Positions 1 through 51,133 of a stretch of 64,000 nucleotides of DNA are shown piece by piece. The stretch is taken from sequence record PP952733.1. One strand, given 5' to 3'. Under the pieces are notes generated by a model, which had not been told where the DNA came from, did no database searches, and saw only the letters and a list, made by a program, of their open reading frames with translations. Position numbers and translations under genes: made by a program. Position 1 is the first letter of the stretch. Each line of letters starts with the position of its first letter. Source of the stretch: Escherichia phage vB_EcoM_H12.

Positions 1-1100
1 GCCCCCTTAACATTCTCTTAACAATTTCTTAACAATCCCTACATAGTTATGCTTGTTAGAGACTTGTTAGCCCCTTGTTAAATCTCTGTTAAGACCACGT
101 AAAAGCCTTGTAAGAGCCTTTAGCATAGCCTTTAAAGCCCCTGTAAAGCCCTATAAAGAGCTTTCTACATAGTTGGGGTGTAATTACTAGGAAGAGACTA
201 AAAAGAGCTTATAAGGAGCTATAAAGGGCTTTTAAGAGGGCTATTTAAAAAGTCACTAAGAGGGAAAGGGAACGATAAGAAAAGAGATAGTGACCATGTT
301 AATAGCTTGTTAAAAAGATTAAACACTTGTTAGGAACTTGTTAATTATCTTAACAAAATAACTCTTTAAAATTAACTTGTTAGCTCTTGTTAGTCATCTG
401 TTAAGACTCTGTAAAGCCTATGTATCAACTGTTGAGACTCTGTTACAGCCTTGTTAGTTCTGTTAAGAATCTGTTAAGACCTCTGAAGAGATGTTAAGAG
501 GATGTAGTAGCTGTTAAGAGATTGTTAAGGATATTTTAAAATTTTGCAAAGGGATGGTAAGGGAGCTGTTAAGGGCTACCAAGCAGATATACATCTTTTA
601 CAGATATTTTTCAGTTCCTTCAAAGACCCTAAAAAATGACTTGATAGTCCTATTTTATAAAAATTTTAAAATTCTGAATAATTACCTAAACAGTCTTCTA
701 AAAATACAGGCATAAACAGGCTTATAAGATACCTTGTTAGTACCGTGTTAGACCTTGTGAGATAAGGTCTGTAAAGATATTCCTGTTAAGTTTGTTAAAA
801 CAGTCTATATAGAGGCTTAGTAATACCTAGTGAACACCTATAGAGGGTAACATAGCTGACATAGAGATTAAGAGGTGTATAGGAGCTTCTAAGAGGGTAT
901 AGAGGTATGGTTAAGGTGATTGTATAGGTTGTTAAGAGGGCTTGTTAGAAGGTTTATTAGAAGGCTATTTAGAAGGTTTATACAGAGGGGCTATTAAGAC
1001 CACTAGATAGTTACTAAGATACTATATAGTACTATATAACTATATAGAGAGTAAGATTAAGAAGGTTGTTAAGAAGGGTAGATATTTTATTCACATATGA
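1..1100. repeat. Non-coding array of about 30 short direct repeats (consensus YTGTTARR, often CTGTTAAGA or CTTGTTAG), plus TAAGAGG-like motifs
   Basis: Repeat copies counted by eye, nearly all in plus orientation, several at 10-12 bp spacing (e.g. 375/386/398 and 461/471/483); two inverted copies (TTAACAA) near position 20; no ORF of 60 aa or more in the track for 1-1180. Confidence 0.7.
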
Positions 1101-8805: not shown

Positions 8806-8903
8806 TAAGTCTCCTTTGTAGAACAAGGCAGACCTACAGCTTTAAGTAAGATGGTACAGTAATCCATACAACAAGTCAAGAACTATTGCAAGTTAAAAAA
8901 GTT

Positions 8904-8928
8904 GTTGACAAAGTACTTGACAAGGTGT
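8904..8928 (+). promoter_or_regulatory. Conserved 25-bp promoter-like element GTTGACAAAGTACTTGACAAGGTGT at divergent junction
   Basis: Two TTGACA boxes 12 bp apart after an A-tract; near-identical copy (one mismatch) at 50936-50960. Confidence 0.55.
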
Positions 8929-9054
8929 AGGCTTATAAATACTTAGAAGATAACTTAAAAGGTTCCTCTAAAAAGGCTATTTAAACAGATATCTTTCTGG
9001 ATATCTATCTTTTATCTTAAAAGCCTTTTAAGAGGTCTTATAAGAGGCATACCA

Positions 9055-10923: not shown

Positions 10924-10934
10924 AAAGTTTTAAA

Positions 10935-10970
10935 AAGGGTATTGACAATGTGTTTAATACCCTTTAATAT
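10935..10970 (+). promoter_or_regulatory. Sigma70-like promoter (TTGACA-17-TAATAT) embedded in a 9-bp inverted repeat
   Basis: TTGACA at 10942-10947, TAATAT at 10965-10970; AAGGGTATT / AATACCCTT arms flank the -35 box. Confidence 0.55.
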
Positions 10971-11033
10971 GTTCTACATAGAAACGAAATGAGAGCTTTT
11001 CTAAGATACTGAAAAATATTTTAAAAAAGTTCT

Positions 11034-11088: not shown

Positions 11089-11165
11089 CTCTGTTTAGCT
11101 CAGCTTGGTAGAGCGTTCCGTTTGGGGCGGTAAGGCCGGAGGTTCAAGTCCTCCAACAGAGACCA
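11089..11165 (+). tRNA. tRNA-Pro (anticodon UGG)
   Basis: Cloverleaf folded by hand: 7-bp acceptor CTCTGTT/AACAGAG, anticodon loop TTTGGGG, T-arm GGAGG-TTCAAGT-CCTCC, CCA encoded. Confidence 0.85.
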
Positions 11166-11172
11166 AATTAAT

Positions 11173-11250
11173 GTTCCAGTAGACAAAATGGTAAAGTCAC
11201 CACTCTTTCAAAGTGGATATTTGAGGGTTCAAATCCCTTCTGGAACGCCA
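11173..11250 (+). tRNA. tRNA-Glu (anticodon UUC)
   Basis: Acceptor GTTCCAG/CTGGAAC, anticodon loop CTTTCAA, T-loop TTCAAAT, CCA encoded. Confidence 0.8.
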
Positions 11251-11257
11251 GTTTTGA

Positions 11258-11330
11258 CAGAAGACCAATTGCAGCAAACTTAATCTTATTCATCTGACAC
11301 GAAATCGGACAAAGAAGAGATTTGGTCTGG
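11258..11330 (+). ncRNA. Stem-closed RNA-like element A (CAGAAGACCAAT...TTTGGTCTGG)
   Basis: Terminal inverted repeat AGACCAA/TTGGTCT enclosing about 50 nt; conserved CAGCAA next to 5' arm; one of four related elements. Confidence 0.4.
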
Positions 11331-11341
11331 TCATTAAGAAT

Positions 11342-11418
11342 TGCGGGTATAGAGAAAGGGCGTCTCACATGTCTCATTAGCATGGTATCGGCAGGTTCGA
11401 CTCCTGCACCCGCCTCCA
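11342..11418 (+). tRNA. tRNA with anticodon CAU (Met or Ile2 type)
   Basis: Anticodon loop CTCATTA, T-arm GCAGG-TTCGACT-CCTGC, CCA encoded; first acceptor pair mismatched. Confidence 0.75.
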
Positions 11419-11424
11419 AATTTA

Positions 11425-11488
11425 CAGAAGACCGTTTACAGCAATATTTATTAAATTTTTAGCGGAAAAATTGAAAGATACGGTCTGG
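11425..11488 (+). ncRNA. Stem-closed RNA-like element B (CAGAAGACCGTT...ACGGTCTGG)
   Basis: Terminal inverted repeat AGACCGT/ACGGTCT; compensatory changes relative to elements A and C. Confidence 0.4.
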
Positions 11489-11501
11489 TAATACTAAACA
11501 T

Positions 11502-11578
11502 GGTTAGGAAGCACATAAGGTATGTGCGGTCGCCTGTTAAGCGAATGGCACAGGGTTCGAATCCCTGACTAACCGCCA
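11502..11578 (+). tRNA. tRNA-Asn (anticodon GUU)
   Basis: Anticodon loop CTGTTAA, T-arm CAGGG-TTCGAAT-CCCTG, CCA encoded. Confidence 0.8.
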
Positions 11579-11587
11579 AATTTAAAT

Positions 11588-11675
11588 GTGTCGTTATCCC
11601 GTAGATGGTAGCGGTGGGGACTGTAAATCCCTTGTCATTGAGACTCGGTAGGTTCGACTCCTACACGGCACACCA
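11588..11675 (+). tRNA. tRNA-Tyr (anticodon GUA), long variable arm
   Basis: Anticodon loop CTGTAAA, about 14-nt variable arm, T-loop TTCGACT, CCA encoded. Confidence 0.8.
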
Positions 11676-11681
11676 AATAAA

Positions 11682-11759
11682 GGTTATGTAGTTTAATCTG
11701 GTTAAAATACTCCCCTGTCACGGGAGATGATGAGGGTTCAAATCCCTTCGTAACCGCCA
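11682..11759 (+). tRNA. tRNA-Asp (anticodon GUC)
   Basis: Anticodon stem CTCCC/GGGAG with loop CTGTCAC, T-loop TTCAAAT, CCA encoded. Confidence 0.8.
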
Positions 11760-11845
11760 AATTATAATAAGTATTTCAAAATGATGTTTGAGAGGGCTAT
11801 TCAGCCCCTCCCTTAAAGAGTTTTTACGAGTATTCTTTAAAGGAG

Positions 11846-11918
11846 CAGAAGACCAAATTCAGCAAGTTACTTAAAATTTCAAGCCAATTTAATTTTGAAA
11901 AATTTAAAACTTGGTCTG
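11846..11918 (+). ncRNA. Stem-closed RNA-like element C (CAGAAGACCAAA...TTGGTCTG)
   Basis: Terminal inverted repeat AGACCAA/TTGGTCT; conserved CAGCAA after 5' arm. Confidence 0.4.
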
Positions 11919-11932
11919 ACTCAACAAATTTA

Positions 11933-12064
11933 CAGAAGACCGTTTACAGCAAAACTTAAACAATCTATTTCTCCGGTAAAGAAAAGGCGAAGGTTCGATT
12001 CCTTCACTCGGCAGATGTCGAGTTGGTGTAATGGTAGCACTTAAGATGATAAACAACGGTCTGG
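11933..12064 (+). ncRNA. Stem-closed element D with permuted tRNA-like module (Y RNA-like candidate)
   Basis: Closing stem AGACCGTT/AACGGTCT; inside, in order: T-arm GAAGG-TTCGATT-CCTTC (11989-12005), 7-bp hairpin ACTCGGC-AGAT-GTCGAGT (12006-12023), D-arm-like TGGTGTAATGGTAGCAC; no anticodon arm or CCA. Confidence 0.45.
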
Positions 12065-12065
12065 T

Positions 12066-12209
12066 AATTATCTTTGTAGATAAGTTATTAAGCTTACTTG
12101 TGAGTATGCGACCACAAAGGGTGAAAGGGTAAATTCTAGATTTAAACCCAACAACGCACATCGCTACAGACCTTAAGCAAGTCTGGGTAGCTTATCTACA
12201 AAGATAATT
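12066..12209 (+). repeat. 19-bp perfect inverted repeat (AATTATCTTTGTAGATAAG / CTTATCTACAAAGATAATT) enclosing about 105 nt
   Basis: Arms at 12066-12084 and 12191-12209 are exact reverse complements; inner hairpin CAGAC-CTTAAGCAA-GTCTG. Confidence 0.6.
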
Positions 12210-12223
12210 TAATGGAAGTGTAG

Positions 12224-12289
12224 CAGAATGGTGATGCGGCAGACTTTTAATCTGACAGGCGATGGGTTCGAATCCCTCCACTTCTACCA
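12224..12289 (+). tRNA. tRNA-Lys (anticodon UUU)
   Basis: Acceptor GGAAGTG/CACTTCT, anticodon loop CTTTTAA, T-loop TTCGAAT (T-stem has two mismatches), CCA encoded. Confidence 0.7.
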
Positions 12290-12293
12290 ATAT

Positions 12294-12370
12294 GGTTCAG
12301 TCGCAGATAAGGTAATGCAGGGGTCTCATAAGCCCTATGAATGTGGGTTCGATTCCCATCTGAACCTCCA
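12294..12370 (+). tRNA. tRNA-Met (anticodon CAU), second copy
   Basis: Anticodon stem with three consecutive G-C pairs, loop CTCATAA, T-arm GTGGG-TTCGATT-CCCAT, CCA encoded. Confidence 0.75.
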
Positions 12371-12371
12371 A

Positions 12372-12447
12372 GCTGGTATAGTTAAGAAGGTTATAACACT
12401 CCCCTGATAAGGGAACATCGGTGGTTCGATTCCACCTACCAGTACCA
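12372..12447 (+). tRNA. tRNA-Ile (anticodon GAU)
   Basis: Anticodon loop CTGATAA, T-arm GGTGG-TTCGATT-CCACC, CCA encoded. Confidence 0.8.
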
Positions 12448-12462
12448 ATTTCAATAAAGTTG

Positions 12463-12491
12463 TTGACATTGAGATGTGACCACTTTATAGT
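12463..12491 (+). promoter_or_regulatory. Sigma70-like promoter TTGACA-17-TATAGT inside tRNA array
   Basis: TTGACA at 12463-12468, TATAGT at 12486-12491, upstream A-tract. Confidence 0.55.
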
Positions 12492-12783
12492 AACTAAAAT
12501 ACTTCATAATATGTATAATTCAAACACCAATACATGAGCGTTAGACGTAACACAATGTGGGGAAATTTGTTGTACATATTCTGAATAGTTTTCGTTGCGT
12601 AGCGTCTATTTTGCAAATTTAAAATAAATGCAAACGACAATGTTTTTCTGGCAGTAGCTTGATAGGCTAAACACCAGTGAGGTCTTCCAATCCCTCATCA
12701 AAGAATTTGGCGTACTAGCCCACGGTATGATTAATAAGGTGGGCATCTTTAAGTACTTTCTAAGAGAGTCTTTAAAGATTAAT

Positions 12784-12860
12784 GCACCCTTAGTTCAATT
12801 GGATAGAGCAACGGTCTTCTAAATCGTTAGTTACAGGTTCGAATCCTGTAGGGTGTGCCA
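12784..12860 (+). tRNA. tRNA-Arg (anticodon UCU)
   Basis: Acceptor GCACCCT/AGGGTGT, anticodon stem ACGGT/ATCGT with loop CTTCTAA, T-loop TTCGAAT, CCA encoded. Confidence 0.8.
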
Positions 12861-13001
12861 AATAGTTAGCAGATTGCTTAGACGACCTTATCGGGTCTCC
12901 GTGTAAGGAGGTGGTCTGTATCTCATGTTTCCAGAACATGTAAATAATCTGAGAAGGGGCTTTACAGTGTTGCGAAAATACGGTAAGCTTCGAATTATAG
13001 T

Positions 13002-13084
13002 GTGGGACGATGTTAAGACTCTAAGGCATGAGCAACGGCCTCCAAAACCGTTTCAAAGGGGTTCAACTCCTCCGTCCCATGCCA
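13002..13084 (+). tRNA. tRNA-Trp-like (anticodon CCA), atypical expanded D region
   Basis: Acceptor GTGGGAC/GTCCCAT, anticodon loop CTCCAAA, T-arm AGGGG-TTCAACT-CCTCC, CCA encoded; about 26 nt between acceptor and anticodon stem. Confidence 0.45.
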
Positions 13085-13097
13085 AAGTCTTATTAGG

Positions 13098-13185
13098 GGT
13101 AGGTAGCGGCTAATGGCAGCCAAACAGTCTTGAAAACTGTTGCCACTGTAGAGATACGGTGAGGGTTCGACTCCTTTACTTACCG
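13098..13185 (+). tRNA. tRNA-Ser (anticodon UGA), long variable arm
   Basis: Anticodon stem ACAGT/ACTGT with loop CTTGAAA, long variable arm, T-loop TTCGACT; CCA not encoded. Confidence 0.75.
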
Positions 13186-13340
13186 CCTAATAAGATTTAA
13201 AACCAAGCTTCATTCGGATGTTGCTTTGGTATCCCTCGTGTATTGTCGTACACAAGTAAAGCACCTAGTAGGTGTCACGGAGAAGAGATAATATCAAGCT
13301 CTCCAAAGGTTCTAGTCACCGGATTAAACAAGACTATGCA

Positions 13341-13361
13341 AAGACCTATTTAGGTCTTTTT
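13341..13361 (+). terminator. Terminator-like hairpin inside tRNA array
   Basis: AAGACCT-ATTT-AGGTCTT followed by TTT; AT-rich stem so probably weak. Confidence 0.4.
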
Positions 13362-13440
13362 AGAGGGCTTCTAAGGTTATTACAGCTTGTTGTGGAACCT
13401 TGTTGCTTAGGTTCTTAGAAGTTCTCTAAAAAGATTTAAT

Positions 13441-13518
13441 GGGAGATTGACGGTAATTGGTAAACCTACCATCCTTAGAAGTTGGTGTTTGAGGGTTCGA
13501 ATCCCTTGTCTCCTACCA
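13441..13518 (+). tRNA. tRNA with anticodon UAG (leucine-type anticodon) but short variable arm
   Basis: Acceptor GGGAGAT/GTCTCCT, anticodon loop CTTAGAA, 5-nt variable loop, T-arm GAGGG-TTCGAAT-CCCTT, A73, CCA encoded. Confidence 0.7.
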
Positions 13519-13525
13519 AATTAAT

Positions 13526-13601
13526 GCAGGTGTAGCAAAATGGTTATGCGGCTGACTCTTAATCAGTAAGACGATGGGTTCAATTCCCTCCACCTGTACC
13601 A
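13526..13601 (+). tRNA. tRNA-Lys (anticodon CUU)
   Basis: Close paralog of the UUU tRNA at 12224; anticodon loop CTCTTAA; CCA encoded. Confidence 0.75.
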
Positions 13602-13605
13602 AATT

Positions 13606-13681
13606 GGGGTCATAGTTTATATGGTTAAAATTCGAGTTTTGCAAACTTGGGAACTGAGTTCAATTCTCAGTGACTCCACCA
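13606..13681 (+). tRNA. tRNA-Ala (anticodon UGC)
   Basis: Acceptor GGGGTCA/TGACTCC, anticodon loop TTTGCAA, T-arm CTGAG-TTCAATT-CTCAG, CCA encoded. Confidence 0.8.
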
Positions 13682-13687
13682 ATTAGT

Positions 13688-13762
13688 GCATCCATAGTTT
13701 AAACGGGAAAATTACAGTCTTCCAAACTGAGGTTGAGGGTTCGATTCCCTCTGGATGCTCCA
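13688..13762 (+). tRNA. tRNA-Gly (anticodon UCC)
   Basis: Acceptor GCATCCA/TGGATGC, anticodon loop CTTCCAA, T-arm GAGGG-TTCGATT-CCCTC, CCA encoded. Confidence 0.8.
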
Positions 13763-13769
13763 AATTAAT

Positions 13770-13845
13770 GCTCCTATCGTATAATTGGCTATTACGGTTG
13801 CCTTGTAAGCAACTTATCAGGGTTCGAATCCTTGTGGGAGCACCA
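13770..13845 (+). tRNA. tRNA-Thr (anticodon UGU)
   Basis: Acceptor GCTCCTA/TGGGAGC, anticodon stem GTTGC/GCAAC with loop CTTGTAA, T-loop TTCGAAT, CCA encoded. Confidence 0.8.
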
Positions 13846-13850
13846 ATTCA

Positions 13851-13936
13851 GAGGTCAAGTGAAAGACCGCTTTGAGTCAACTGAAGACCGTAACAAATCC
13901 CACGGAGTTGAGTTAGCGGCACAACTTCAGACCTCT
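13851..13936 (+). ncRNA. Structured hairpin element between tRNA-Thr and tRNA-Val
   Basis: 6-bp closing inverted repeat GAGGTC/GACCTC around about 75 nt with nested complementary segments (TCAACT/AGTTGA) and a GAAGACCGT motif; no canonical T-loop. Confidence 0.35.
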
Positions 13937-13941
13937 TTCAT

Positions 13942-14016
13942 ACTCGCTTAGTTTATATGGTAAAACATCACCCTTACAAGATGAAGAAAAAGGTTCAAGC
14001 CCTTTAGTGAGTACCA
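13942..14016 (+). tRNA. tRNA-Val (anticodon UAC)
   Basis: Acceptor ACTCGCT/AGTGAGT, anticodon loop CTTACAA, T-arm AAAGG-TTCAAGC-CCTTT, CCA encoded. Confidence 0.7.
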
Positions 14017-14017
14017 T

Positions 14018-14095
14018 GTTCCAGTATCCCAATTGGCAGAGGATGCAAGCTCAAACCTTGTACTAGTGACGGTTCGAATCCGTCTTGGAACACCA
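14018..14095 (+). tRNA. tRNA with anticodon CAA (leucine-type anticodon) but short variable arm
   Basis: Acceptor GTTCCAG/TTGGAAC, anticodon stem GCAAG/CTTGT with loop CTCAAAC, 6-nt variable loop, T-arm GACGG-TTCGAAT-CCGTC, A73, CCA encoded. Confidence 0.7.
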
Positions 14096-14100
14096 ATTTT

Positions 14101-14176
14101 GCAGGATTAGTTCAAATGGATAGAGCAACAGTCTACGAAGCTGTTAATAGGGGTTCGAATCCCTTATCCTGCGCCA
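14101..14176 (+). tRNA. tRNA-Arg (anticodon ACG)
   Basis: Acceptor GCAGGAT/ATCCTGC, anticodon stem ACAGT/GCTGT with loop CTACGAA, T-loop TTCGAAT, CCA encoded. Confidence 0.8.
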
Positions 14177-14195
14177 ATTTAAAGAGGCTATTTAG

Positions 14196-14753
14196 ATGAG
14201 ATATTTGAAGTATGCTTCATGGATTTTCTTAGCTTTGTTAGAGCCATTTGCAGCAATCTTAGCAGTTATCTTAGCACCTTTTGTAGTTCCATTCTACAGT
14301 GAAAAGAAAGGACACTTACCTTTCGGCTTCAGATGGATGGAAACATATGACAACCCAATTGATGGTGATGAAGGTCATGTTGAACGATGGGCTAAGATTA
14401 GAAAGATTGGTAAGCTTGGTGTCTATATGCAGAGAGTTGGTTGGCTCTGGAGAAACAAAGCTTATAACTTCTCTTACCATGTGTTAGGAAGAGATGTAAA
14501 AGATGTTACTAAGTGGAAAGGTAATATCAATGTAAGTTCTAACCCTGAAGATAATCAGACAGGTTATCTCCTAATGTGGAACAGTAATGCTTGGGGATTA
14601 TTCGCTTTTATCCCATCAATTAAAGTCTTTGGTAAGCAATTCTACTGGAGAATTTATGTTGGATGGAAACTTAAAAGTGTTGTTCCAAAAGAAAGAGCAT
14701 TCTCAAGGGAAAGAGTTATGTTGGCATTCTTTATTCATCCACTAAGAAAGTAA
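14196..14753 (+). CDS. putative membrane protein (185 aa) encoded inside the tRNA array
   Basis: AAAGAGG RBS; N-terminal hydrophobic helix (WIFLALLEPFAAILAVILAPFVVPF); Trp-rich. Confidence 0.55.
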   Translation: MRYLKYASWIFLALLEPFAAILAVILAPFVVPFYSEKKGHLPFGFRWMETYDNPIDGDEGHVERWAKIRKIGKLGVYMQRVGWLWRNKAYNFSYHVLGRDVKDVTKWKGNINVSSNPEDNQTGYLLMWNSNAWGLFAFIPSIKVFGKQFYWRIYVGWKLKSVVPKERAFSRERVMLAFFIHPLRK

Positions 14754-14761
14754 AGATTTAA

Positions 14762-14837
14762 AGGGGATTAGTTTACAAGGTTAAAACCTCGGTCTTTGAA
14801 ATCGAAGAAGTTGGTTCAATTCCAACATCCCCCGCCA
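14762..14837 (+). tRNA. tRNA-Gln (anticodon UUG)
   Basis: Anticodon stem TCGGT/ATCGA with loop CTTTGAA, T-arm GTTGG-TTCAATT-CCAAC, CCA encoded; first acceptor pair mismatched. Confidence 0.75.
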
Positions 14838-14839
14838 AT

Positions 14840-14918
14840 GCTCCATTACTCCAATTGGTAGAGAGGCCAGACTTAAAATCTGTGTTATGTATCGGTTCGA
14901 ATCCGATATGGAGTACCA
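14840..14918 (+). tRNA. tRNA with anticodon UAA (leucine-type anticodon) but short variable arm
   Basis: Acceptor GCTCCAT/ATGGAGT, anticodon loop CTTAAAA, about 7-nt variable loop, T-arm ATCGG-TTCGAAT-CCGAT, A73, CCA encoded. Confidence 0.7.
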
Positions 14919-14923
14919 AATTT

Positions 14924-14999
14924 AGCGGTATAGCATAACTGGCAATGCAGCAGTCTCTGAAGCTGTCTTATTAAGGTTCAAATCCTTATGCCGCTGCCA
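14924..14999 (+). tRNA. tRNA-Gln (anticodon CUG)
   Basis: D-stem GCAT/ATGC, anticodon stem GCAGT/GCTGT with loop CTCTGAA, T-loop TTCAAAT, CCA encoded. Confidence 0.7.
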
Positions 15000-15030
15000 C
15001 TTCTAAGGATTCTTACGAGAGTCCTTAAAT

Positions 15031-15106
15031 GTGGCCTTATCATAAATGGTAATGACCCATGCTGTGAACATGGTCTATACGGGTTCAAATCCCGTAGGTC
15101 ACCCCA
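15031..15106 (+). tRNA. tRNA-His (anticodon GUG)
   Basis: Acceptor GTGGCCT/AGGTCAC, anticodon stem CCATG/CATGG with loop CTGTGAA, T-arm ACGGG-TTCAAAT-CCCGT, CCA encoded. Confidence 0.8.
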
Positions 15107-15111
15107 ATTTA

Positions 15112-15188
15112 TAGTCCAAGTAGCTTATATGGTTAAAGCGCGTGTCTGAAAAACATGAGAAGAGGGTTCAAATCCCACTGGACTACCA
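15112..15188 (+). tRNA. tRNA-Phe (anticodon GAA)
   Basis: Acceptor TAGTCCA/TGGACTA, anticodon loop CTGAAAA, T-loop TTCAAAT. Confidence 0.75.
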
Positions 15189-15204
15189 ATTTCAAAGGTG
15201 CTTA

Positions 15205-15939
15205 ATGAAAGAGATGACAGAACAAGGTAAGGAGATTTTTAATCTCTTAAAAACTGGTAAAGGGTTATCTAACCCCCTTATTACTGGTGCAGCAGTTCTC
15301 GGTGGAACAGTAGCTGCCTCTACATCACTTGTAAGCTCTATTAGCTCTGTAACAGACCCTACAATAAAGGATAAGCTTATTGCTGCTGGACTTACAACAG
15401 TTCTGCTTAACAGCTTTACCACAAGTCTGACAAGCACTACATCAACTACTAAAACACTGACAGATTACGGTCAAAAGTCCATTGATGAGTTTTCATCACG
15501 TATGCAGGTAGCAAAAGGTTATTCTAATGTTATGGGTGCAGCAGGTGAACAAGTTGGCTGTACACCATTTAGTGGTATTATGGGTGTTGCTACAGAGTAC
15601 GGTCAAAAAGCTATTGACACAATTAACAGCACACTAGACGGTGTTAATGATGTATTAAGTGACTTACAAGACGCTATTGACAAAGGTCTTGATACTATTT
15701 CTGATTTAGCTAACCAAGCTGTTAGTAAGATTAATGAAGGTATCTCGAAGATTACAGCTTATGCAGATGAAGTTGTGCAGATGATTGAAGAAGAAGCTGC
15801 CCTTATTGCAGAGTACCTTAAAACAAATATCAATGGGTTCTTAGCAGGTATCTTACCAGACTGGTTTGATGATGCTTGTAAAACTGGTGTAATTGATACT
15901 ATTGCAACACCAGAGATGAAGAACGCATTACAGAAATAA
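15205..15939 (+). CDS. hypothetical Ser/Thr-rich protein (244 aa) inside the tRNA array
   Basis: Start moved from track 15142 to ATG 15205 (AAAGG RBS) so it does not overlap tRNA-Phe; low-complexity S/T segment. Confidence 0.5.
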   Translation: MKEMTEQGKEIFNLLKTGKGLSNPLITGAAVLGGTVAASTSLVSSISSVTDPTIKDKLIAAGLTTVLLNSFTTSLTSTTSTTKTLTDYGQKSIDEFSSRMQVAKGYSNVMGAAGEQVGCTPFSGIMGVATEYGQKAIDTINSTLDGVNDVLSDLQDAIDKGLDTISDLANQAVSKINEGISKITAYADEVVQMIEEEAALIAEYLKTNINGFLAGILPDWFDDACKTGVIDTIATPEMKNALQK

Positions 15940-15941
15940 AT

Positions 15942-16034
15942 GGAAGATTAACCCTAAAAGGTAAGGGAGCAGTTTGCTAAACTGCCAGTAGCTGAGAAAT
16001 CGGTGTACCAGTTCAAGTCTGGTATCTTCCTCCA
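15942..16034 (+). tRNA. tRNA-Ser (anticodon GCU), long variable arm
   Basis: Acceptor GGAAGAT/ATCTTCC, anticodon stem GCAGT/ACTGC with loop TTGCTAA, long variable arm, T-arm ACCAG-TTCAAGT-CTGGT, CCA encoded. Confidence 0.8.
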
Positions 16035-16038
16035 ATTT

Positions 16039-16114
16039 GAATCCGTGACAGAAATGGATATGTACCTGTCTGCAAAACAGGTTTATAAGGGTTCGAGTCC
16101 CTTCGGATTCTCCA
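16039..16114 (+). tRNA. tRNA-Cys (anticodon GCA)
   Basis: Acceptor GAATCCG/CGGATTC, anticodon stem CCTGT/ACAGG with loop CTGCAAA, T-loop TTCGAGT, CCA encoded. Confidence 0.8.
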
Positions 16115-20486: not shown

Positions 20487-21833
20487 ATGAGTTCGAATAT
20501 CTTCAGACTTGCTGATAGATTATTCAACCAACCTTTACTAGCCACTGAATCATTAGCTCACTCAGCAGCAACTTATGTGAATAACAGATTGCTGGGTGAT
20601 GTCCAAGCAGCAGTAAACTTTGATAAACCCAAAGGTGAAGCAAGAAGTCTTTTAAAAGTAAAAGATGATATTGCTATTGTTCCTATTATGGGTGGCTTAA
20701 CCCATCGTATGACATTCATTGATGCAATGTGTACAGGTGGTTTAAGCTCTTATGAAGGTTTACGCAGAGGCTTTGACGAAGCTTTAGCAGATGAGTCAAT
20801 TAAGACTATTGTTCTGCACATCGATTCTGGTGGTGGTGAAGCTTCAGGTTGCTTTGAATTAGCACGTCACATTATGGCTTCAAGAGGCCAAAAGAAAATT
20901 ATTGCTTATGTAGATGAGTTCGCTTGTTCCGCTGCATATGCTCTTGCATCTTCTGCTGAAGAAATTATTGCATCACCAGATGCAGATGTTGGTTCTATCG
21001 GTGTAATCATGGTTCATCAGGAATTAACTAAGGCATTTGAAAAGAATGGCGTAACAATTAACGTCATCAAAGCTGGTGAGTTTAAAGGTATGGGTTCACC
21101 ATTCCAAGCACTTTCAGAAGAAAGCAAAGAAAGACTTCAAAAGAGAATTAATGATACCTACGCAACCTTCACAGGTTTTGTAGCTGAATCACGTAATATC
21201 TCTGAAGAAGCTGTAAAGAATACTGAGGCGAATGTTTATTCTGCTCAGGAAGCTCTTGAACTTGGTTTAATTAACTCAATCATGTCTCAAGATGATTTCT
21301 TAAATTACTTACAAGGTTCTGAAGAGGCTCCTGTAAGTTTAAACGTTAACAATTCAGGTGAAGAAATGACTGAACAAGAAAAGCAAGAACTAGAAGCTTT
21401 GCGTCTTCAGGTTGCTCAAATGAAAGCTAAAGAACAGGAAGCTGCTTTGTCAGATTTGACTAATAAGATTTCTGCTTCTGCTGAAGCTTTTGGATTTGAT
21501 GCAAAAGAAGCTGCAACGACTATTTTAGGTGCTGGTCTTGATAACCCTCTGAGTGTTCTGTTTATGAATGCTATGGAAGGTGCTAACCAGAAACTTAATG
21601 AAACTATCGCGTCCCATGCTTCTGCAATGGAAGAAAAAGAATCAGAAATTACCAAGCTGAAAGAAACTGCTGGTGCTGTTCTTGAACATTCCAACGCTAT
21701 GGAAGAAGTGGGTAATGACGGCGAAGCTGATTTAGTTGAAGAAGAAAAAGAACCAGCTAAGAATGCTTCCGAAGACACCGCTGAACAACGCAAACTGGCT
21801 CTCCAGAATGCTCTAAAATCTCTTATCAAATAA
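20487..21833 (+). CDS. prohead protease (S49/ClpP-like) fused to coiled-coil scaffold-like C-terminus
   Basis: N-terminal half has S49-like segments (IVPIMGGLT, HIDSGGGEASG, YVDEFACSAAYALAS); C-terminal half is Ala/Glu-rich. Confidence 0.7.
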   Translation: MSSNIFRLADRLFNQPLLATESLAHSAATYVNNRLLGDVQAAVNFDKPKGEARSLLKVKDDIAIVPIMGGLTHRMTFIDAMCTGGLSSYEGLRRGFDEALADESIKTIVLHIDSGGGEASGCFELARHIMASRGQKKIIAYVDEFACSAAYALASSAEEIIASPDADVGSIGVIMVHQELTKAFEKNGVTINVIKAGEFKGMGSPFQALSEESKERLQKRINDTYATFTGFVAESRNISEEAVKNTEANVYSAQEALELGLINSIMSQDDFLNYLQGSEEAPVSLNVNNSGEEMTEQEKQELEALRLQVAQMKAKEQEAALSDLTNKISASAEAFGFDAKEAATTILGAGLDNPLSVLFMNAMEGANQKLNETIASHASAMEEKESEITKLKETAGAVLEHSNAMEEVGNDGEADLVEEEKEPAKNASEDTAEQRKLALQNALKSLIK

Positions 21834-22255: not shown

Positions 22256-23359
22256 ATGTTGACTAATTCTGAAAAAAGCAGATTTTTCCTTGCTGACCTG
22301 ACTGGTGAAGTCCAGTCTATCCCAAATACTTATGGGTATATTTCCAACTTAGGTCTGTTCCGTTCAGCACCAATCACCCAAACTACTTTCCTTATGGATT
22401 TGACTGATTGGGATGTTAGCTTGCTTGATGCGGTAGACCGTGATAGCCGTAAAGCAGAGACTAGCGCACCTGAGCGTGTTCGTCAAATCAGCTTCCCAAT
22501 GATGTACTTCAAAGAAGTTGAAAGCATTACTCCTGATGAAATTCAGGGTGTACGTCAGCCAGGCACTGCAAACGAACTGACTACTGAAGCTGTAGTACGT
22601 GCTAAGAAGCTGATGAAGATTCGTACCAAGTTCGATATTACTCGTGAGTTCCTGTTTATGCAAGCTCTGAAGGGTAAAGTTGTTGATGCTCGTGGTACTC
22701 TGTATGCTGACCTGTACAAGCAGTTCGACGTTGAGAAGAAGACTGTTTACTTCGACCTTGACAACCCTAATGCTGACATCGACGCTTCTATTGAAGAACT
22801 GCGTATGCACATGGAAGACGAAGCTAAGACTGGCACTGTAATCAACGGTGAAGAAATTCACGTAGTTGTTGACCGTGTATTCTTCAGCAAGCTGACTAAA
22901 CACCCTAAGATTCGTGATGCCTATCTTGCACAGCAGACCCCACTGGCTTGGCAACAGATTACTGGTTCTCTGAGAACTGGTGGTACTGACGGCGTTCAGG
23001 CTCACATGAACACTTTCTACTACGGTGGTGTTAAGTTTGTCCAGTACAACGGTAAGTTCAAAGACAAGCGTGGTAAGGTTCATACTCTGGTGAGCATTGA
23101 TGGTGCTGGTGCAGAGGTTGGTGTAGGACACGCTTTCCCTAACGTTTCTATGCTGGGTGAAGCAAACAACATCTTCGAAGTGGCATATGGTCCATGTCCT
23201 AAGATGGGTTATGCAAATACGCTTGGTCAGGAACTGTACGTATTTGAATACGAAAAAGACCGTGACGAAGGTATCGACTTTGAAGCTCACTCTTACATGC
23301 TGCCATACTGTACTCGTCCTCAGTTGCTGGTAGACGTTCGTTCTGACGCTCAAGGCTAA
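22256..23359 (+). CDS. major capsid protein (lambda gpE-like family)
   Basis: 367 aa; GGAG RBS; segments resembling lambda E-type capsid proteins; position after protease and accessory protein. Confidence 0.75.
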   Translation: MLTNSEKSRFFLADLTGEVQSIPNTYGYISNLGLFRSAPITQTTFLMDLTDWDVSLLDAVDRDSRKAETSAPERVRQISFPMMYFKEVESITPDEIQGVRQPGTANELTTEAVVRAKKLMKIRTKFDITREFLFMQALKGKVVDARGTLYADLYKQFDVEKKTVYFDLDNPNADIDASIEELRMHMEDEAKTGTVINGEEIHVVVDRVFFSKLTKHPKIRDAYLAQQTPLAWQQITGSLRTGGTDGVQAHMNTFYYGGVKFVQYNGKFKDKRGKVHTLVSIDGAGAEVGVGHAFPNVSMLGEANNIFEVAYGPCPKMGYANTLGQELYVFEYEKDRDEGIDFEAHSYMLPYCTRPQLLVDVRSDAQG

Positions 23360-40280: not shown

Positions 40281-41180
40281 TTACTTGCCTACTGACAGAG
40301 GTGCTTCAATCTTACCTGCATGTTGGTAGTTATTAATCCCACCAATAAAATCACTTGCTGTAAGATGTTTTAAGTCACTTAAAGTGTTAAGTGGAATACC
40401 AATCTCAAAAGTTGGTGCATGGAACTCTTCATTGTTCATCAGTTCATAAACCTGCTTCATATGGTTCTGATAAATCTGAGTATCTCCAAAGACACCTATC
40501 AAGTACCGTGGAGTGTATCCAGTCATCTTACAAAGAACTTCCAGAATAAAACCGTAAGATGCAATATTAAACGGAAGTCCTAAAAAGGTGTCTACTGAAC
40601 GCTGATACCATTGTAAGTCAACTTCACCCTCGTTAGTGATATAAATCTGAAACAGAACATGACAAGGTGCTAAAGCCATCGAGTTTGCTGCAATATCTGC
40701 TGCATTCCAAGCATTAACAAGCATGTAACGGTCTGTGATATCACCCTTCATCTTCGTTACTAAGGTCTCTAGTTGGTCTACAACACAACCATTATGACCT
40801 TCAAAGTTTCTCCACTGAACCCCATAGATTCTTCCACCTGCATCCTCTAACCAATCTTGTTCAGAAGAATAATTAGAGCTTAACCAGCGTTTAAAATCAT
40901 CTGACCAGATAGTCCAGCGTTCCCCATCATTTTCACCCCAAGTGCGGTAACGGAGTTCACCCAGCTTATTCTCACCGTTCAGGAACCATAAAGCTTCACC
41001 GATAACTTGTCGTGTAAACACCTGTTTAGATGTTAAGAGTGGGAAACCAGTTCGCATATCAAAACGAAACTGAGGTGGAGCAAATGCAGAGATAACATCA
41101 CCAGTTCGTGTAGTACGCAGTTCACCAACGGATAAAACATGGTTCAGGATATTTTTGTAACTTGTATCTGCTTGTGACAT
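40281..41180 (-). CDS. thyA: thymidylate synthase (ThyA family)
   Basis: LAPCHVLFQ with catalytic Cys, QRSVDTFLGLPFNIASY with dUMP-specifying Asn; DHFR gene adjacent. Confidence 0.85.
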   Translation of the reverse strand: MSQADTSYKNILNHVLSVGELRTTRTGDVISAFAPPQFRFDMRTGFPLLTSKQVFTRQVIGEALWFLNGENKLGELRYRTWGENDGERWTIWSDDFKRWLSSNYSSEQDWLEDAGGRIYGVQWRNFEGHNGCVVDQLETLVTKMKGDITDRYMLVNAWNAADIAANSMALAPCHVLFQIYITNEGEVDLQWYQRSVDTFLGLPFNIASYGFILEVLCKMTGYTPRYLIGVFGDTQIYQNHMKQVYELMNNEEFHAPTFEIGIPLNTLSDLKHLTASDFIGGINNYQHAGKIEAPLSVGK

Positions 41181-41181
41181 A

Positions 41182-41727
41182 TCAAAAGTGTCCTTTTACT
41201 TGTGGTGTATAGATATCAAAAGTTGCTTTTCCATCTGCTGATGGTCTTGACTGAATCTTAGCGAAAATTTTACGGTCATGCAACTTGTCAAAGAAGTTCT
41301 CAAAAGGTAGATATACAGTTGCCTCTTCATTAACTTCATGGAAAACTGTATGGAACACTACATCAGCATACGGTAAAGCACTGACAAGGATACCTGAACC
41401 ACCAATTACGAAAACATCTTCTTCAATATTACTGTCAAGATACTTTAAAAATGCTCCAAAAGAGTCTTGATGAGCTTTAGCAAACATAACATCATCTTTA
41501 CTAAAATCTATACCGTAATAAGGCACAGAGTTTGTCAAGATAAGGTTTTCACGTTCAGGTAAAGGGTTACTTCCCAGAGTCTTGAAAGTCTCATTACCCA
41601 TTACTACTAAGTTGTCTTTAGTGAGTCTCTTAAACTCTTGCATATCCTCTTTATGTCGAGGCCACGGCATACCAGTTGGAGTACCAAACTCACCATTTTC
41701 ACCACTTGCAAAGATTAATTTAATCAT
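41182..41727 (-). CDS. dihydrofolate reductase
   Basis: N-terminal IKLIFASGENGEFGTPTGMPWP and GNETF motif; AAGGA RBS; adjacent to thyA. Confidence 0.75.
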   Translation of the reverse strand: MIKLIFASGENGEFGTPTGMPWPRHKEDMQEFKRLTKDNLVVMGNETFKTLGSNPLPERENLILTNSVPYYGIDFSKDDVMFAKAHQDSFGAFLKYLDSNIEEDVFVIGGSGILVSALPYADVVFHTVFHEVNEEATVYLPFENFFDKLHDRKIFAKIQSRPSADGKATFDIYTPQVKGHF

Positions 41728-41984
41728 TTTGTAAATCCTTTCTTAATGAACCAGTTGATAACATTCTTCACAGCTTTATTGCTATGGTAGATTAAGTGTG
41801 GCGTAGGCTGGTATGAACCATAAGCCCAGAAAGCAATAATTTCACTACACCCTGTACACCTTGTACTCTCTTCAGCAATATGACCGTTGACTATTTCACT
41901 TACCTCACCTTGTAAGTCTGTGCATCCACAATGTGGACAACGGATAGGTGCTCCGTCAGACTCATAGCAGTGTTCAATTTTCAT
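41724..41984 (-). CDS. small zinc-ribbon protein (86 aa)
   Basis: CPHCGC ... CTGC cysteine pairs. Confidence 0.45.
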   Translation of the reverse strand: MKIEHCYESDGAPIRCPHCGCTDLQGEVSEIVNGHIAEESTRCTGCSEIIAFWAYGSYQPTPHLIYHSNKAVKNVINWFIKKGFTK

Positions 41985-42500
41985 TTATTTAACCTCAAAA
42001 ACTGGTTCAAGAACCAATATAAAATCTACACAGTCATCTTCTTCATCCAGAATACCATCAAAGTTCTTAGGAACGAAGTCGAAGAGGCTCATAACAAAGC
42101 AGTCAGAAGTAACCCTAATAGTGCCTCCCATATTCTCTACAGTCAACACTGTACGGCTTTCTTTTACCTCTCTCAGAAGATTACTCACAAAGTCATCTAA
42201 GAAGTACTTCATCAGTGACTTAAAGCCTTTAGGGTAATCTGTACCAGAGTATGTTTCAATCTGAGGTACAAGCTTAACATTTATACTGGTCTTTGTTAAG
42301 AATGTGCTAGAGAACATGCTATCAGGTAACTTACAAACAGTCTTTTCAGTACCTTCATGTTCAATCTCAACAAAACCAGCTTCATCGCCACATGTGACTA
42401 TTTTAAAAGATGCTTCATTATCACCCTGTGAAGCCATAAACTTTTTAAGCATCACTTTAAGGAAATCTGCATGAGCATCTTGTAAGTATATATCAATCAT
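41985..42500 (-). CDS. hypothetical protein (171 aa)
   Basis: ORF in track. Confidence 0.5.
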   Translation of the reverse strand: MIDIYLQDAHADFLKVMLKKFMASQGDNEASFKIVTCGDEAGFVEIEHEGTEKTVCKLPDSMFSSTFLTKTSINVKLVPQIETYSGTDYPKGFKSLMKYFLDDFVSNLLREVKESRTVLTVENMGGTIRVTSDCFVMSLFDFVPKNFDGILDEEDDCVDFILVLEPVFEVK

Positions 42501-42513
42501 AATTCATCACCTA

Positions 42514-42873
42514 TTATGGGAACAGACATTTGATGTCATCGTTTTTGAAAACGAAGCTTGTGTAGTTGTGACCGTCAACATCCAGCCAAACAGCCTGAAC
42601 ATCTACACCATCAAGATTGTGGTAAAGCTCTTTGATGAAGTGGTCTTTCACAATCTGGCTGCTAGTTGTCTCCAGCTTAATGTTTGAGATTGCTGAACCT
42701 ACAGCCATATAACCCATGACACGTTTCTTCTCAGTATGCTTAATCTTACCATCTTTGTAAGCCATAATGAGATTGGAAAGAATCTTCACACCATAATACT
42801 TTTCAAGGTGAGTAGGTACACCATAAAAGCCTAATGCGAAATTTTCAGAGTGGATAATGTTTTCACGTTTCAT
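42514..42873 (-). CDS. hypothetical protein (119 aa)
   Basis: ORF in track. Confidence 0.5.
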   Translation of the reverse strand: MKRENIIHSENFALGFYGVPTHLEKYYGVKILSNLIMAYKDGKIKHTEKKRVMGYMAVGSAISNIKLETTSSQIVKDHFIKELYHNLDGVDVQAVWLDVDGHNYTSFVFKNDDIKCLFP

Positions 42874-42874
42874 A

Positions 42875-43174
42875 TTAATCTGCCAGCCTTAAATTAAAAT
42901 TAACACCAAATTTTTCGCATACTTCCAACATAAACTCAAGAGAGACATTACCAGTGAGATTGATTATGTTGGATACGCGAGCCTGAGAGATACCACAAAT
43001 TTTAGCAACTTGCTCTTGAGAAAGACCTCTGGATTTAATCTCTCTCTTAAAACGATGTGCAACGAAGTCTCTCATTTCGTCTACATCCATTGGACAAATA
43101 TAATTCTCCATTTCAGCCTCTCTGTCAGCCTCCCAATCATCTTGTGGAGCATAAGGGTCAAAAACCTCATTCAT
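42875..43174 (-). CDS. HTH (XRE-like) transcriptional regulator
   Basis: Helix-turn-helix LSQEQVAKICGISQARVSNIINL; start moved to internal ATG (track start is TTG at 43204). Confidence 0.55.
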   Translation of the reverse strand: MNEVFDPYAPQDDWEADREAEMENYICPMDVDEMRDFVAHRFKREIKSRGLSQEQVAKICGISQARVSNIINLTGNVSLEFMLEVCEKFGVNFNLRLAD

Positions 43175-43379
43175 CTTTCTTCTTCCGTTTTCGTGAAGTG
43201 TCAATCAATGAATCTATGTTTGTAGACCTAACCTTTTCACGTTCATCGTTAAGATAATCGTCAAGAATCTTTTCAATCTGTGAATCATCTTGACAGATAA
43301 CTGTAAAGACTGTAAAGCCGTCTGTATCATCAATTATCTTACCATAACCGCTTCTGGGATGTAACTTTTTAAGAGCCAT
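43167..43379 (-). CDS. hypothetical small protein (70 aa), basic C-terminus
   Basis: ORF in track. Confidence 0.35.
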   Translation of the reverse strand: MALKKLHPRSGYGKIIDDTDGFTVFTVICQDDSQIEKILDDYLNDEREKVRSTNIDSLIDTSRKRKKKDE

Positions 43380-43380
43380 A

Positions 43381-43764: not shown

Positions 43765-43860
43765 AATGACCTCAAAGTTATATTAAATTTTGTATTACAT
43801 TGAGTATAAAAATAAGCTATAACACCTGACTTGTCAACAGATTTTATAGCTTATTTGGCA

Positions 43861-43997: not shown

Positions 43998-44009
43998 TAA
44001 TCGAATTTT

Positions 44010-44108: not shown

Positions 44109-44139
44109 GACCTTTTAAAAAGGAGCCTCCGAAGAGGCT
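44109..44139 (-). terminator. Terminator-like hairpin downstream of 44151..44591
   Basis: AGCCTC-CGAA-GAGGCT with T-run on the minus strand. Confidence 0.5.
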
Positions 44140-44150
44140 ACCTAGTCAAC

Positions 44151-50876: not shown

Positions 50877-50935
50877 TTTTACTCCCTCTAAAATCATTAA
50901 CCTCATACATTACTGCAAAAAATTATAAAAAGCAA

Positions 50936-50960
50936 GTTGACAATGTACTTGACAAGGTGT
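50936..50960 (+). promoter_or_regulatory. Conserved 25-bp promoter-like element GTTGACAATGTACTTGACAAGGTGT at second divergent junction
   Basis: One mismatch relative to the element at 8904-8928; two TTGACA boxes. Confidence 0.55.
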
Positions 50961-51071
50961 TAATCTTTGCGAAGTGGGTTTTTACTTAAAAGGTTACTTA
51001 ACAGTTTAACTATACAGATACTTTAAAACTCTTAAAAGATTATTTAATAGCTTTTAAAAAGCTTTAAAGTA

Positions 51072-51090
51072 TAACGTATAGAATACGTTA
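51072..51090. promoter_or_regulatory. Palindrome TAACGTA-TAGAA-TACGTTA, operator-like
   Basis: Perfect 7-bp inverted repeat 45 bp upstream of the first gene of the rightward block. Confidence 0.4.
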
Positions 51091-51133
51091 AGATAAAAGA
51101 TTAAAACTTAATAGTTACTTAAAAGAGGCTTAC

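Follow-up and report, generated by a model that had tools for sequence, protein, structure and literature searches.

Two near-identical 25-bp elements in a 64,000-nucleotide stretch of Escherichia phage vB_EcoM_H12 (PP952733.1; the whole stretch is called the window below) probably form the cores of two strong sigma-70 promoters, each back-to-back with a leftward partner, and in each the second of two TTGACA hexamers appears to be kept by selection without marking a second promoter. We put the probability of this reading at roughly 80%. Copy 1, GTTGACAAAGTACTTGACAAGGTGT, lies at 8904-8928 and copy 2, GTTGACAATGTACTTGACAAGGTGT, at 50936-50960, both on the + strand, with a single difference between them (A at 8912, T at 50944). 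Within each copy are two TTGACA hexamers, here called box 1 and box 2, whose starts are 12 bp apart (8905-8910 and 8917-8922; 50937-50942 and 50949-50954), and the window has no other perfect TTGACA-N6-TTGACA. A search of both strands of the 64 kb for the 25-mer, allowing up to 3 mismatches, returned these 2 matches only, and 100 dinucleotide-preserving shuffles returned none. The initial annotation had pointed to the near-identical 25-mers with their one difference, to two boxes 12 bp apart in each, and to their placement after a leftward gene block and before the first rightward gene. All of this is borne out by the sequence and by the map of open reading frames (ORFs), and the search for the 25-mer that it had proposed, run here on the window, gave no extra copies at the same threshold.

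Conservation of the probable promoter core

Both intergenic gaps were taken from ~50 IMG/VR contigs, and Felix O1, EcSzw_1 (Suspvirus), Mijalis (Mooglevirus, whole genome), and Erwinia phage M7 (Kolesnikvirus, whole genome) were also compared. Among 20 distinct sequences from three genera (11 of copy 1 and 9 of copy 2), there were zero changes in either TTGACA box, and the 6 bp between the boxes differ at almost every position. The inter-box variants were AAGTAC, AAGGAC, AAGCAC, TTCCTC, AGCCTC, AGGGGA, and AATGAC at copy 1 and ATGTAC, ATGCAC, ATGCGC, ATACAC, AATCAC, ATTCAC, and AAGCAC at copy 2. An A-tract precedes box 1, and TG usually precedes the -10 hexamer, which was TAGGCT, TAGCCT, TAAGTT, or TAGTGT at copy 1 and TAATCT or TAGTCT at copy 2, with T1, A2, and T6 fixed; copy 2 of Mijalis, for example, reads TGg followed by TAGTCT at unchanged spacing. 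In every genome examined, 17 or 18 bp separate box 1 from the TAnnnT hexamer, with exactly 17 bp at copy 1 and 18 bp at copy 2 of the three genera. Since only the middle of the hexamer varies between genera, the pattern is the one expected of a working -10 element. This geometry from box 1 to TAnnnT, together with its conservation, suggests that the 25-mer is part of a sigma-70-type promoter, of which it would cover approximately -36 to -12, box 1 being the -35 hexamer. A perfect -35 hexamer, a -10 hexamer with A2 and T6 at 16 to 18 bp, and an intergenic position co-oriented with the downstream genes are all found, as in a sigma-70 promoter.

The counterparts of the two gaps in M7 hold single boxes, TTGACA-17-TACATT at the copy 2 locus and TTTACA-17-TACACT at the copy 1 locus, with TG nearby. 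Since M7 keeps a -35-like hexamer and TAnnnT at 17 bp without box 2, box 1 and the -10 hexamer are confirmed as the conserved promoter. Where box 2 does occur, the pattern of conservation indicates that it is under strong purifying selection. In an 88-kb scan, Mijalis has two perfect N6 double boxes only; they occupy the corresponding gaps and have unrelated inter-box hexamers (AATCAC and TTCCTC). At the variable inter-box position, 19 paired genomes show unlinked states at the two loci, namely (T,C), (T,T), (G,T), (G,C), and (C,C). Inter-box bases thus drift independently at each locus, and the one-mismatch identity of the two copies in this genome is partly an accident of allele states. Gene conversion or concerted evolution of the 25-mer is rejected by the same pairing of alleles.

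Two probable bidirectional start points

The window belongs to a Felix O1-like myovirus (Felixounavirus, Ounavirinae) with 97 to 99% identity to Felix O1-like phages that infect E. coli or Salmonella. Felix O1 itself has a classic role in the typing and biocontrol of Salmonella. Its genome was divided into four "transcriptons" with two divergent points, between genes 40 and 41 and between genes 96 and 97, and these are the only two leftward-to-rightward switches in the entire genome (PMC3185647). According to the same paper, Felix O1 does not encode its own RNA polymerase, T4-like modifiers of host polymerase promoter specificity were not found, and neither the way transcription starts around terminators nor its temporal control was known (PMC3185647). 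In the window, genes run leftward to ~8660, rightward from 9055 to 40245, leftward from 40281 to 50876, and rightward from 51134, so that there are likewise two leftward-to-rightward gaps only, each holding one 25-mer. The copy 1 gap (392 bp) separates a leftward gene of 77 amino acids (aa) (start at 8662) from a rightward DUF5681 gene (ATG at 9055), and the copy 2 gap (257 bp) separates the leftward DNA polymerase gene from a rightward 140-aa gene (ATG at 51134).

Each rightward promoter is back-to-back with a putative leftward sigma-70-type promoter, which would make the two gaps the phage's two bidirectional start points. We propose that host RNA polymerase with the primary sigma factor, sigma-70, reads both rightward promoters, using the first TTGACA, with an A-tract ahead of it, as the -35 hexamer and TAnnnT as the -10 hexamer after 17 bp (TG-TAGGCT) or 18 bp (TGt-TAATCT). 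We infer from this geometry that transcripts would start at ~8941 and ~50973. The first would pass through a hairpin leader into the DUF5681 gene, a DUF2828/DUF7788 gene, and a cluster of 24 tRNA genes (11089-16111), beyond which lie structural genes; the second would pass through a leader of ~160 nt into a block that includes deoxynucleoside monophosphate (dNMP) kinase and primase-helicase genes. The outcome is the location of two bidirectional control regions, with predicted promoter and start coordinates for four transcription units (Table 1).

At the leftward partner of copy 1, TG adjoins the -10 hexamer, and no genus shows a change in the -35 part or its flanks. The leftward partner of copy 2 has its -35 hexamer 1 bp from box 1, and its -10 hexamer is TAATGT, TAGGGT, or TAGTGT according to genus, with TAnnnT and the spacing constant. 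At both loci, as at other promoters of the phage, five or six A residues form a tract at ~-40 to -45, and the tract of copy 2 overlaps the leftward -35 hexamer. For the DNA polymerase gene, the ATG at 50876 is the most likely start: a GAGGGAG ribosome-binding site precedes it by 7 nt, and the resulting 899-aa product matches the Mijalis annotation. Several relatives are annotated with a longer polymerase ORF starting at the equivalent of 50897 or 50906, and with such a start the ORF would enter the promoter region.

A possible second leftward promoter was also noticed near copy 1 (8882-8911, minus strand), in which the complement of box 1, TTGTCA, would serve as the -35 hexamer, with TGc-AATAGT 18 bp downstream. 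Relatives retain its TGnAATAGT part (TTGCAATAGT / TTGTAATAGT). Box 1 would be used in both directions, should this promoter be real.

Several observations weigh against the promoter reading. The -10 hexamers match TATAAT at only 3 of 6 positions, and a simple consensus scan for that reason called neither promoter. The TG of copy 1 falls at -14/-13 instead of the canonical -15/-14, and in Felix O1 these two bases are TA. Searches of the searchable literature returned no mapped transcription starts for a Felix O1-like phage, so that initiation is inferred. No standard promoter element accounts for box 2, and its distance from the -10 hexamer ranges from 4 to 6 bp, as the boxes are separated by N5, N6, or N7 in different promoters; such a shift in register, by 1 to 2 bp, speaks against a single fixed contact within the open complex. 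As for timing, reverse transcription-PCR in Felix O1 placed genes 41, 42, and 97 to 99 in one temporal class, whose expression peaked at 25 min and not at 5 min. That these genes share one class was counted in favor of the promoter reading, and the peak at 25 min was counted against it. The initial annotation had suggested a specific early-promoter class: a promoter class stands, with two members in the window, a third elsewhere in the genome, and retention across genera, and its early timing is plausible only.

A small class of predicted promoters within the phage

The combination of an A-tract, TTGACA, a 16- to 18-bp spacer, and TAnnnT also occurs at intergenic, co-oriented sites at 9439, 10942, 11033, 12463, 45446, and 55772 in the window, and an "AAAAAG.." tract precedes the TTGACA of those at 9439, 10942, 11033, 12463, and 45446. 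A third double-box promoter lies outside the window and was located in D4, a close relative (PP886228.1, ~86952-86990; 22953-22990 of locus L261). There, in an intergenic gap of the early small-ORF region, TTGACA-N7-TTGACA is preceded by an A-tract and followed by TAACTT 17 bp past box 1. Its counterpart in Mijalis was found at ~78065 (minus strand), and M7 has a double-box promoter of this class at 83706, near the right end. To judge from sequence, the double-TTGACA promoters are therefore a small class, three per genome, kept across genera.

The site at 10942 (TTGACA-17-TAATAT) is embedded in a hairpin (AAGGGTATT...AATACCCTT) in the region 10925-10975, which the Felix O1 paper lists as bidirectional terminators t42/t43 (PMC3185647). 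Since the t42/t43 hairpin contains the 10942 site, a terminator stem-loop overlaps the next promoter. Such an overlap recalls the "promoter-early stem-loop" cassettes of T4-type phages.

Recurrence of the double box in T4-like phages

A pattern scan of IMG/VR recovered at least ~45 T4-like myovirus loci with the arrangement "AAAAGTTG TTGACA AAGGGC TTGACA AnnTG TAnnnT"; the scan is unsuitable for counting occurrences, as many of its matches are coding sequence (e.g., ..VDKALDKV..). Loci of this large clade of uncultured phages (L061-L173 and L181-L260 in our IMG/VR set; e.g., L181, ~480-600, minus strand) neighbor uvsY, uvsW, a 124-aa ORF, gp55, gp47, and gp46, where gp55 was identified by tblastn as the T4-type late sigma factor. 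We also fetched gp55 loci directly, without the motif as a criterion, which gave 67 distinct upstream regions. An exact TTGACA-N6-TTGACA was present in 27 of the 67, a single exact TTGACA in 34, and none in 6; by eye, a second box following an N5 gap is also seen in most of the regions with a single exact hexamer, and in a few the second box is degenerate (TTGCCA, TTAACA). When a looser search was pooled, 75 distinct sequences (47 with N6 and 28 with N5) had near-invariant boxes, and TAnnnT stood 17 to 18 bp from box 1 in 72 of them. An A-tract again precedes these promoters, and ~35 nt downstream are also kept (..TCGGTGTCCCCCTTTGA..TTAAT).

The T4-like promoter lies in the short gap that separates the conserved 124-aa ORF from gp55 and is antisense to both. 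It is directed away from gp55 and would read into the upstream ORF from its 3' end, with box 1 ~25 nt from the gp55 start codon. It might serve to make an antisense RNA, to act as a timer or roadblock for gp55 expression, or to prime an origin. In the cultured cyanophages S-RSM4 and S-RIM8, an antisense TTGACA-17-TAGAAT occurs at the same place on the minus strand (L179, ~600-650; L180, ~600-660), with extra TGACA-like repeats upstream in a different register. A search of seven T4-like or cyanophage loci against Rfam returned no RNA family besides tRNAs, and literature searches on an antisense promoter at cyanophage g55 found nothing relevant.

The double-box design apparently arose independently in the T4-like clade. 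In an unrelated, G+C-richer viral contig (IMG/VR L109, ~2566-2600), we also observed TTGACA-N6-TTGACA-AGATGT-TATAAT, in which a perfect extended -10 element lies 18 bp from box 1 and a G+C-rich hairpin comes next. This contig may hold another independent instance of the architecture.

A possible role for box 2

Most likely, box 2 would offer a second docking site for sigma region 4 and thereby change how polymerase is captured or held. Given that no homologue of the window's helix-turn-helix (HTH) protein was found in the T4-like fragments searched and that the hosts differ, host polymerase is the most economical reader of both boxes, and recurrence in unrelated, very abundant environmental T4-like phages suggests that box 2 acts generally with bacterial RNA polymerase. 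Going further, it is possible, though we hold this only tentatively and think it rather doubtful in full, that two -35 hexamers one turn apart (TTGACA-N5-7-TTGACA) are a selected architecture of independent origins whose second docking site confers a special kinetic or regulatory property. If so, the double box may mean an extreme dependence on sigma region 4 that a phage factor could switch, or long-lived polymerase complexes acting as timers or roadblocks, as the antisense copy abutting gp55 suggests. If box 2 tunes polymerase capture, promoter escape, or anti-sigma sensitivity, it would also give the design of synthetic promoters a simple new element.

Two further candidates for its function were tried and rejected. 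Pairing between the inter-box bases and the transcribed region is possible in many T4-like copies (AAGGG/CCCTT) and at the third promoter, where the inter-box hexamer is complementary to the start of the transcribed region (CCCTC/GAGGG); other T4-like variants are uncompensated, and copies 1 and 2 are unpaired. None of the sites for IHF, CRP/FNR, Fis, or DnaA, or the PhoB box, fits when compared by eye with consensus sequences, and the PhoB-like TGTCA repeats have the wrong period.

Alternative explanations

It is possible that the 25-mer is mainly an operator, in which a DNA-binding protein of phage or host reads TTGACAA-N5-TTGACAA and so switches both rightward units together. The boxes do form a 12-bp direct repeat with both halves invariant, the phage encodes a Cro/C1-type HTH protein, and the promoter spacer, the site of box 2, is a common position for repressor binding. 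We nevertheless consider this unlikely, as the bases that never change make up the sigma-70 -35 consensus with nothing beyond it, while the inter-box bases and flanks vary. Conservation within the 25-mer is limited to the two TTGACA(A) boxes and TG, and no conserved symmetric operator was found, the palindrome AAGTACTT of copy 1 being broken in copy 2 and in relatives. The inter-box gap may be 5, 6, or 7 bp, and T4-like phages that infect other hosts share this architecture; a search of their contig fragments of 8 kb or more gave no homologue of the HTH protein. The M7 genome has no such homologue either, yet contains a double-box promoter, and on this ground the HTH protein was rejected as a reader of the double box. 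The initial annotation had taken conservation past the -35 hexamer to suggest a regulator-binding site, if not an early-promoter class; that argument fails for the inter-box 6 bp, which are not kept, and retains some force for the second TTGACA(A) and the TG, which is usually kept. Candidate regulator sites common to both regions sit downstream of the 25-mer, in the leaders.

Overlapping tandem promoters, with each TTGACA serving as a -35 hexamer and starts ~12 nt apart, seem quite improbable. A weak -10 element after box 2 is conceivable at copy 1, where AATACT lies 15 bp past it, as does AACACT at 16 bp in the Mooglevirus type. At copy 2, the third promoter, and the T4-like clade, however, no hexamer with A2 and T6 is found 15 to 19 bp past box 2. 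Since a -10 candidate follows box 2 at copy 1 only, tandem promoters cannot explain its conservation everywhere.

We give very little credence to the idea that the 25-mers are primarily polymerase-loading sites for a purpose besides gene expression, whether for transcription-activated replication origins, in which a promoter precedes an AT-rich, structured region, as in T7 or T4, or as polymerase traps or roadblocks. Each promoter is followed by 115 to 160 bp of AT-rich, highly conserved noncoding DNA with inverted repeats, and the T4-like promoter, antisense beside gp55 and near uvsW/uvsY, has no obvious need for an mRNA. The Felix-type promoters, on the other hand, are placed and oriented for the first genes of long rightward blocks, for which no other promoter is apparent in the same gaps, and nothing in the data is origin specific; cumulative GC skew tracks gene orientation only. 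Last, it is scarcely credible that box 2 is a functionless relic of a 12-bp duplication and the 25-mer identity a result of recent gene conversion, as the one-base difference in this genome might suggest, given the unlinked inter-box states in the 19 paired genomes, the perfect boxes around unrelated inter-box hexamers in other genera, and the unrelated sequence between shared blocks at the two loci.

Relation to known promoters

In kind, both sites are ordinary host-type phage promoters, and a promoter at each had been predicted singly before. P41 of Felix O1 is copy 1, predicted as TTGACA-N15-TATAGG at 21515-21541, and nothing comparable was found in the gap between genes 96 and 97 (PMC3185647). 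Felix O1 carries both copies, including copy 2 in the 96-97 gap, which corrects the claim that the polymerase-side gap has no recognizable promoter. In GenBank record MZ726792 (phage ASO1B), a promoter feature starts at box 1 of copy 2, as TTGACA-N16-GTTAAT. P41 and this feature mark the same physical sites as our promoters; they differ in the choice of -10 hexamer and do not mention the second TTGACA or the shared element. No description of a duplicated -35 hexamer was found in the searchable literature. As far as the literature shows, then, the shared element, the second perfect -35 hexamer in the spacer, the class of three promoters, and the recurrence in T4-like phages are new, and together they define a duplicated -35 class.

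The promoters resemble canonical sigma-70 promoters of virulent coliphages, for example early promoters of T4-type phages, which in RB43 consist of TTGACA, TAAAGT, and an upstream promoter (UP) element (PMC3486835). Shared features are the A-tract, a perfect TTGACA, a 17- to 18-bp spacer, TAnnnT, TG nearby, a position before the first gene, and presumed use of unmodified host polymerase; the Felix O1-like promoters differ in their second perfect TTGACA at -23 to -18 and in a weak -10 hexamer (3 of 6 matches). The early promoters of T5 and T7 are further canonical coliphage sigma-70 promoters of this build.

Other systems resemble the double box in part. Pausing at lambda PR' is sigma-70 dependent and requires a -10-like element in the initially transcribed region. 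Here, similarly, sigma region 4 could re-bind a second -35-like hexamer that follows the true one; in contrast to PR', there is no -10-like element 12 bp past the -10 hexamer at copies 1 or 2, the third promoter, or the T4-like promoters. Hexamers at this distance read TACTTA (ACACTT in the Mooglevirus type) and AGTGGG, without the A2/T6 pair, and a pause of the PR' type was rejected. The gal P1/P2 and lac P1/P2 pairs are overlapping or tandem promoters and likewise bring two polymerase elements within about one DNA turn, but here only one -35 box has a matching -10 hexamer. The T7 promoters A1 to A3, which are followed by the RNase III site R0.3 and exemplify early control regions whose leader hairpin is processed or stabilizing, share with our sites a strong host-type promoter and a long conserved hairpin before the first gene; the leaders described here are predicted from sequence and have no Rfam match.

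Table 1. Coordinates of predicted promoter parts and leader features at the two gaps
Feature	Position	Strand	Basis or remark
Copy 1, A-tract directly upstream of box 1, UP-element-like	8895..8900	+	Sequence; UP function putative
Copy 1, 25-mer, ~-36 to -12 of predicted rightward promoter	8904..8928	+	
Copy 1, box 1 TTGACA, -35 hexamer	8905..8910	+	Invariant in 11 distinct sequences, three genera; TAnnnT exactly 17 bp downstream
Copy 1, box 2 TTGACA in spacer, ~-23..-18	8917..8922	+	Invariant; inter-box hexamer 8911-8916 varies at nearly every position
Copy 1, TG + TAGGCT	8926..8933 (-10 hexamer 8928-8933)	+	TG abuts hexamer
Copy 1, predicted transcription start	8940..8942 (~8941)	+	Promoter geometry, 7-8 nt past -10 hexamer
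Copy 1, ACTTAAAAGGTT box, ~+12 of predicted transcript	8953..8964	+	Same offset at copy 2
Copy 1, leader hairpin, long imperfect stem-loop ending at ribosome-binding site	8954..9044	+	Predicted fold
Copy 1, 14-mer TTAAGATAAAAGAT	9007..9020	-	Opposite orientation to copy 2
Copy 1, putative leftward partner promoter: TTGACT (8879..8874), 17 bp, TACCAT (8856..8851)	8851..8879	-	Consensus scan
Copy 2, A-tract upstream of box 1	50927..50931	+	
Copy 2, 25-mer, ~-37 to -13 of predicted rightward promoter	50936..50960	+	
Copy 2, box 1 TTGACA, -35 hexamer	50937..50942	+	Invariant in 9 distinct copy 2 sequences
Copy 2, box 2 TTGACA in spacer	50949..50954	+	Invariant
Copy 2, TGt + TAATCT, extended -10	50958..50966 (TG at -15/-14; hexamer 50961-50966)	+	18-bp spacer
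Copy 2, predicted transcription start	50973..50974	+	Promoter geometry
Copy 2, ACTTAAAAGGTT box, ~+11 of predicted transcript	50984..50995	+	
Copy 2, structured leader part, nested helices	50997..51092	+	Consensus fold
Copy 2, 14-mer TTAAGATAAAAGAT	51088..51101	+	
Copy 2, putative leftward partner promoter of DNA polymerase gene: TTGCTT (50935..50930), 17 bp, TAATGT (50912..50907)	50907..50935	-	

Leaders and a candidate regulator

The predicted leaders of ~115 nt (copy 1) and ~160 nt (copy 2) are AT rich, with inverted repeats. Compared between the window and Mijalis, whole leaders are 82 to 89% identical, against 55 to 67% at third-codon positions of the four flanking genes. The core of the leader 1 hairpin is 96% identical, against 66 to 67% at third-codon positions of the two downstream genes, and the hairpin has a minimum free energy of -28.4 kcal/mol (z = -2.8). 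For leader 2, a consensus fold from six sequences of three genera contains one helix kept by two compensatory double changes (UA to AU and CG to UA); its single-sequence fold has z = -1.95. No Rfam family reached the gathering threshold in either leader, and the same scan of the window returned the 24 tRNAs only. A tandem-repeat finder reported two short 12-bp repeats of ~2 copies in the copy 1 leader and none in the copy 2 leader.

Two motifs are shared by the leaders. ACTTAAAAGGTT stands at +47/48 from box 1 in both, and a related box stands at +59 after the third promoter, where ACTTAAAAGATTC occurs 59 bp past box 1 in both D4 and Mijalis and is constant between these genera. The 14-mer TTAAGATAAAAGAT has two exact copies in the window only, in opposite orientations. 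In genomes of the Mooglevirus/Suspvirus type, the ACTTAAAAGGTT box becomes ..GACTC and the 14-mer becomes ..GATAAGAGAT at both loci, and Mijalis shows the identical A-to-G change in the 14-mer at both. These matching changes suggest a phage-encoded sequence-specific factor, for which the shared leader motifs would be putative sites. Alternatively, RNA pairing or patchy gene conversion may have produced the matched changes.

A gene in the leftward early block (42875-43204, minus strand) encodes a 108-aa Cro/C1-type HTH protein (Pfam HTH_3, E = 4.5e-11), which PHROG labels "transcriptional regulator" and which has a weak, subthreshold match to sigma-70 region 4. Its homologue in Mijalis is 70% identical; none was found in the whole M7 genome, where ACTTAAAAG is also absent, or in the searched contig fragments of T4-like phages, each 8 kb or longer. 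On this single contrast with M7, the HTH protein is a candidate reader of the leader motifs, and we offer it as a lead only. The genome paper found no T4-like modifiers of polymerase specificity in this phage, for which the protein is a candidate regulator. Many "CTTTTAAGAGG" strings are plain ribosome-binding-site context.

The first 1,100 nt of the window (1-1100) are gene free and hold short repeats (CTTGTTAG / CTGTTAAG / TGTTAAGA) and many strings of the CTGTAAAG / CTATAAAG type. TGTTARR has 21 matches in the first kb versus ~1 per kb elsewhere. A link between this array and the "CTTAAAAG" motifs of the leaders was rejected, as the leaders show no enrichment for the array motif. A comparable gap of ~1.7 kb, without annotation, is present in Mijalis (record 74992-76673), and the array could be a protein-binding array, such as an origin, a packaging site, or a partition-like site.

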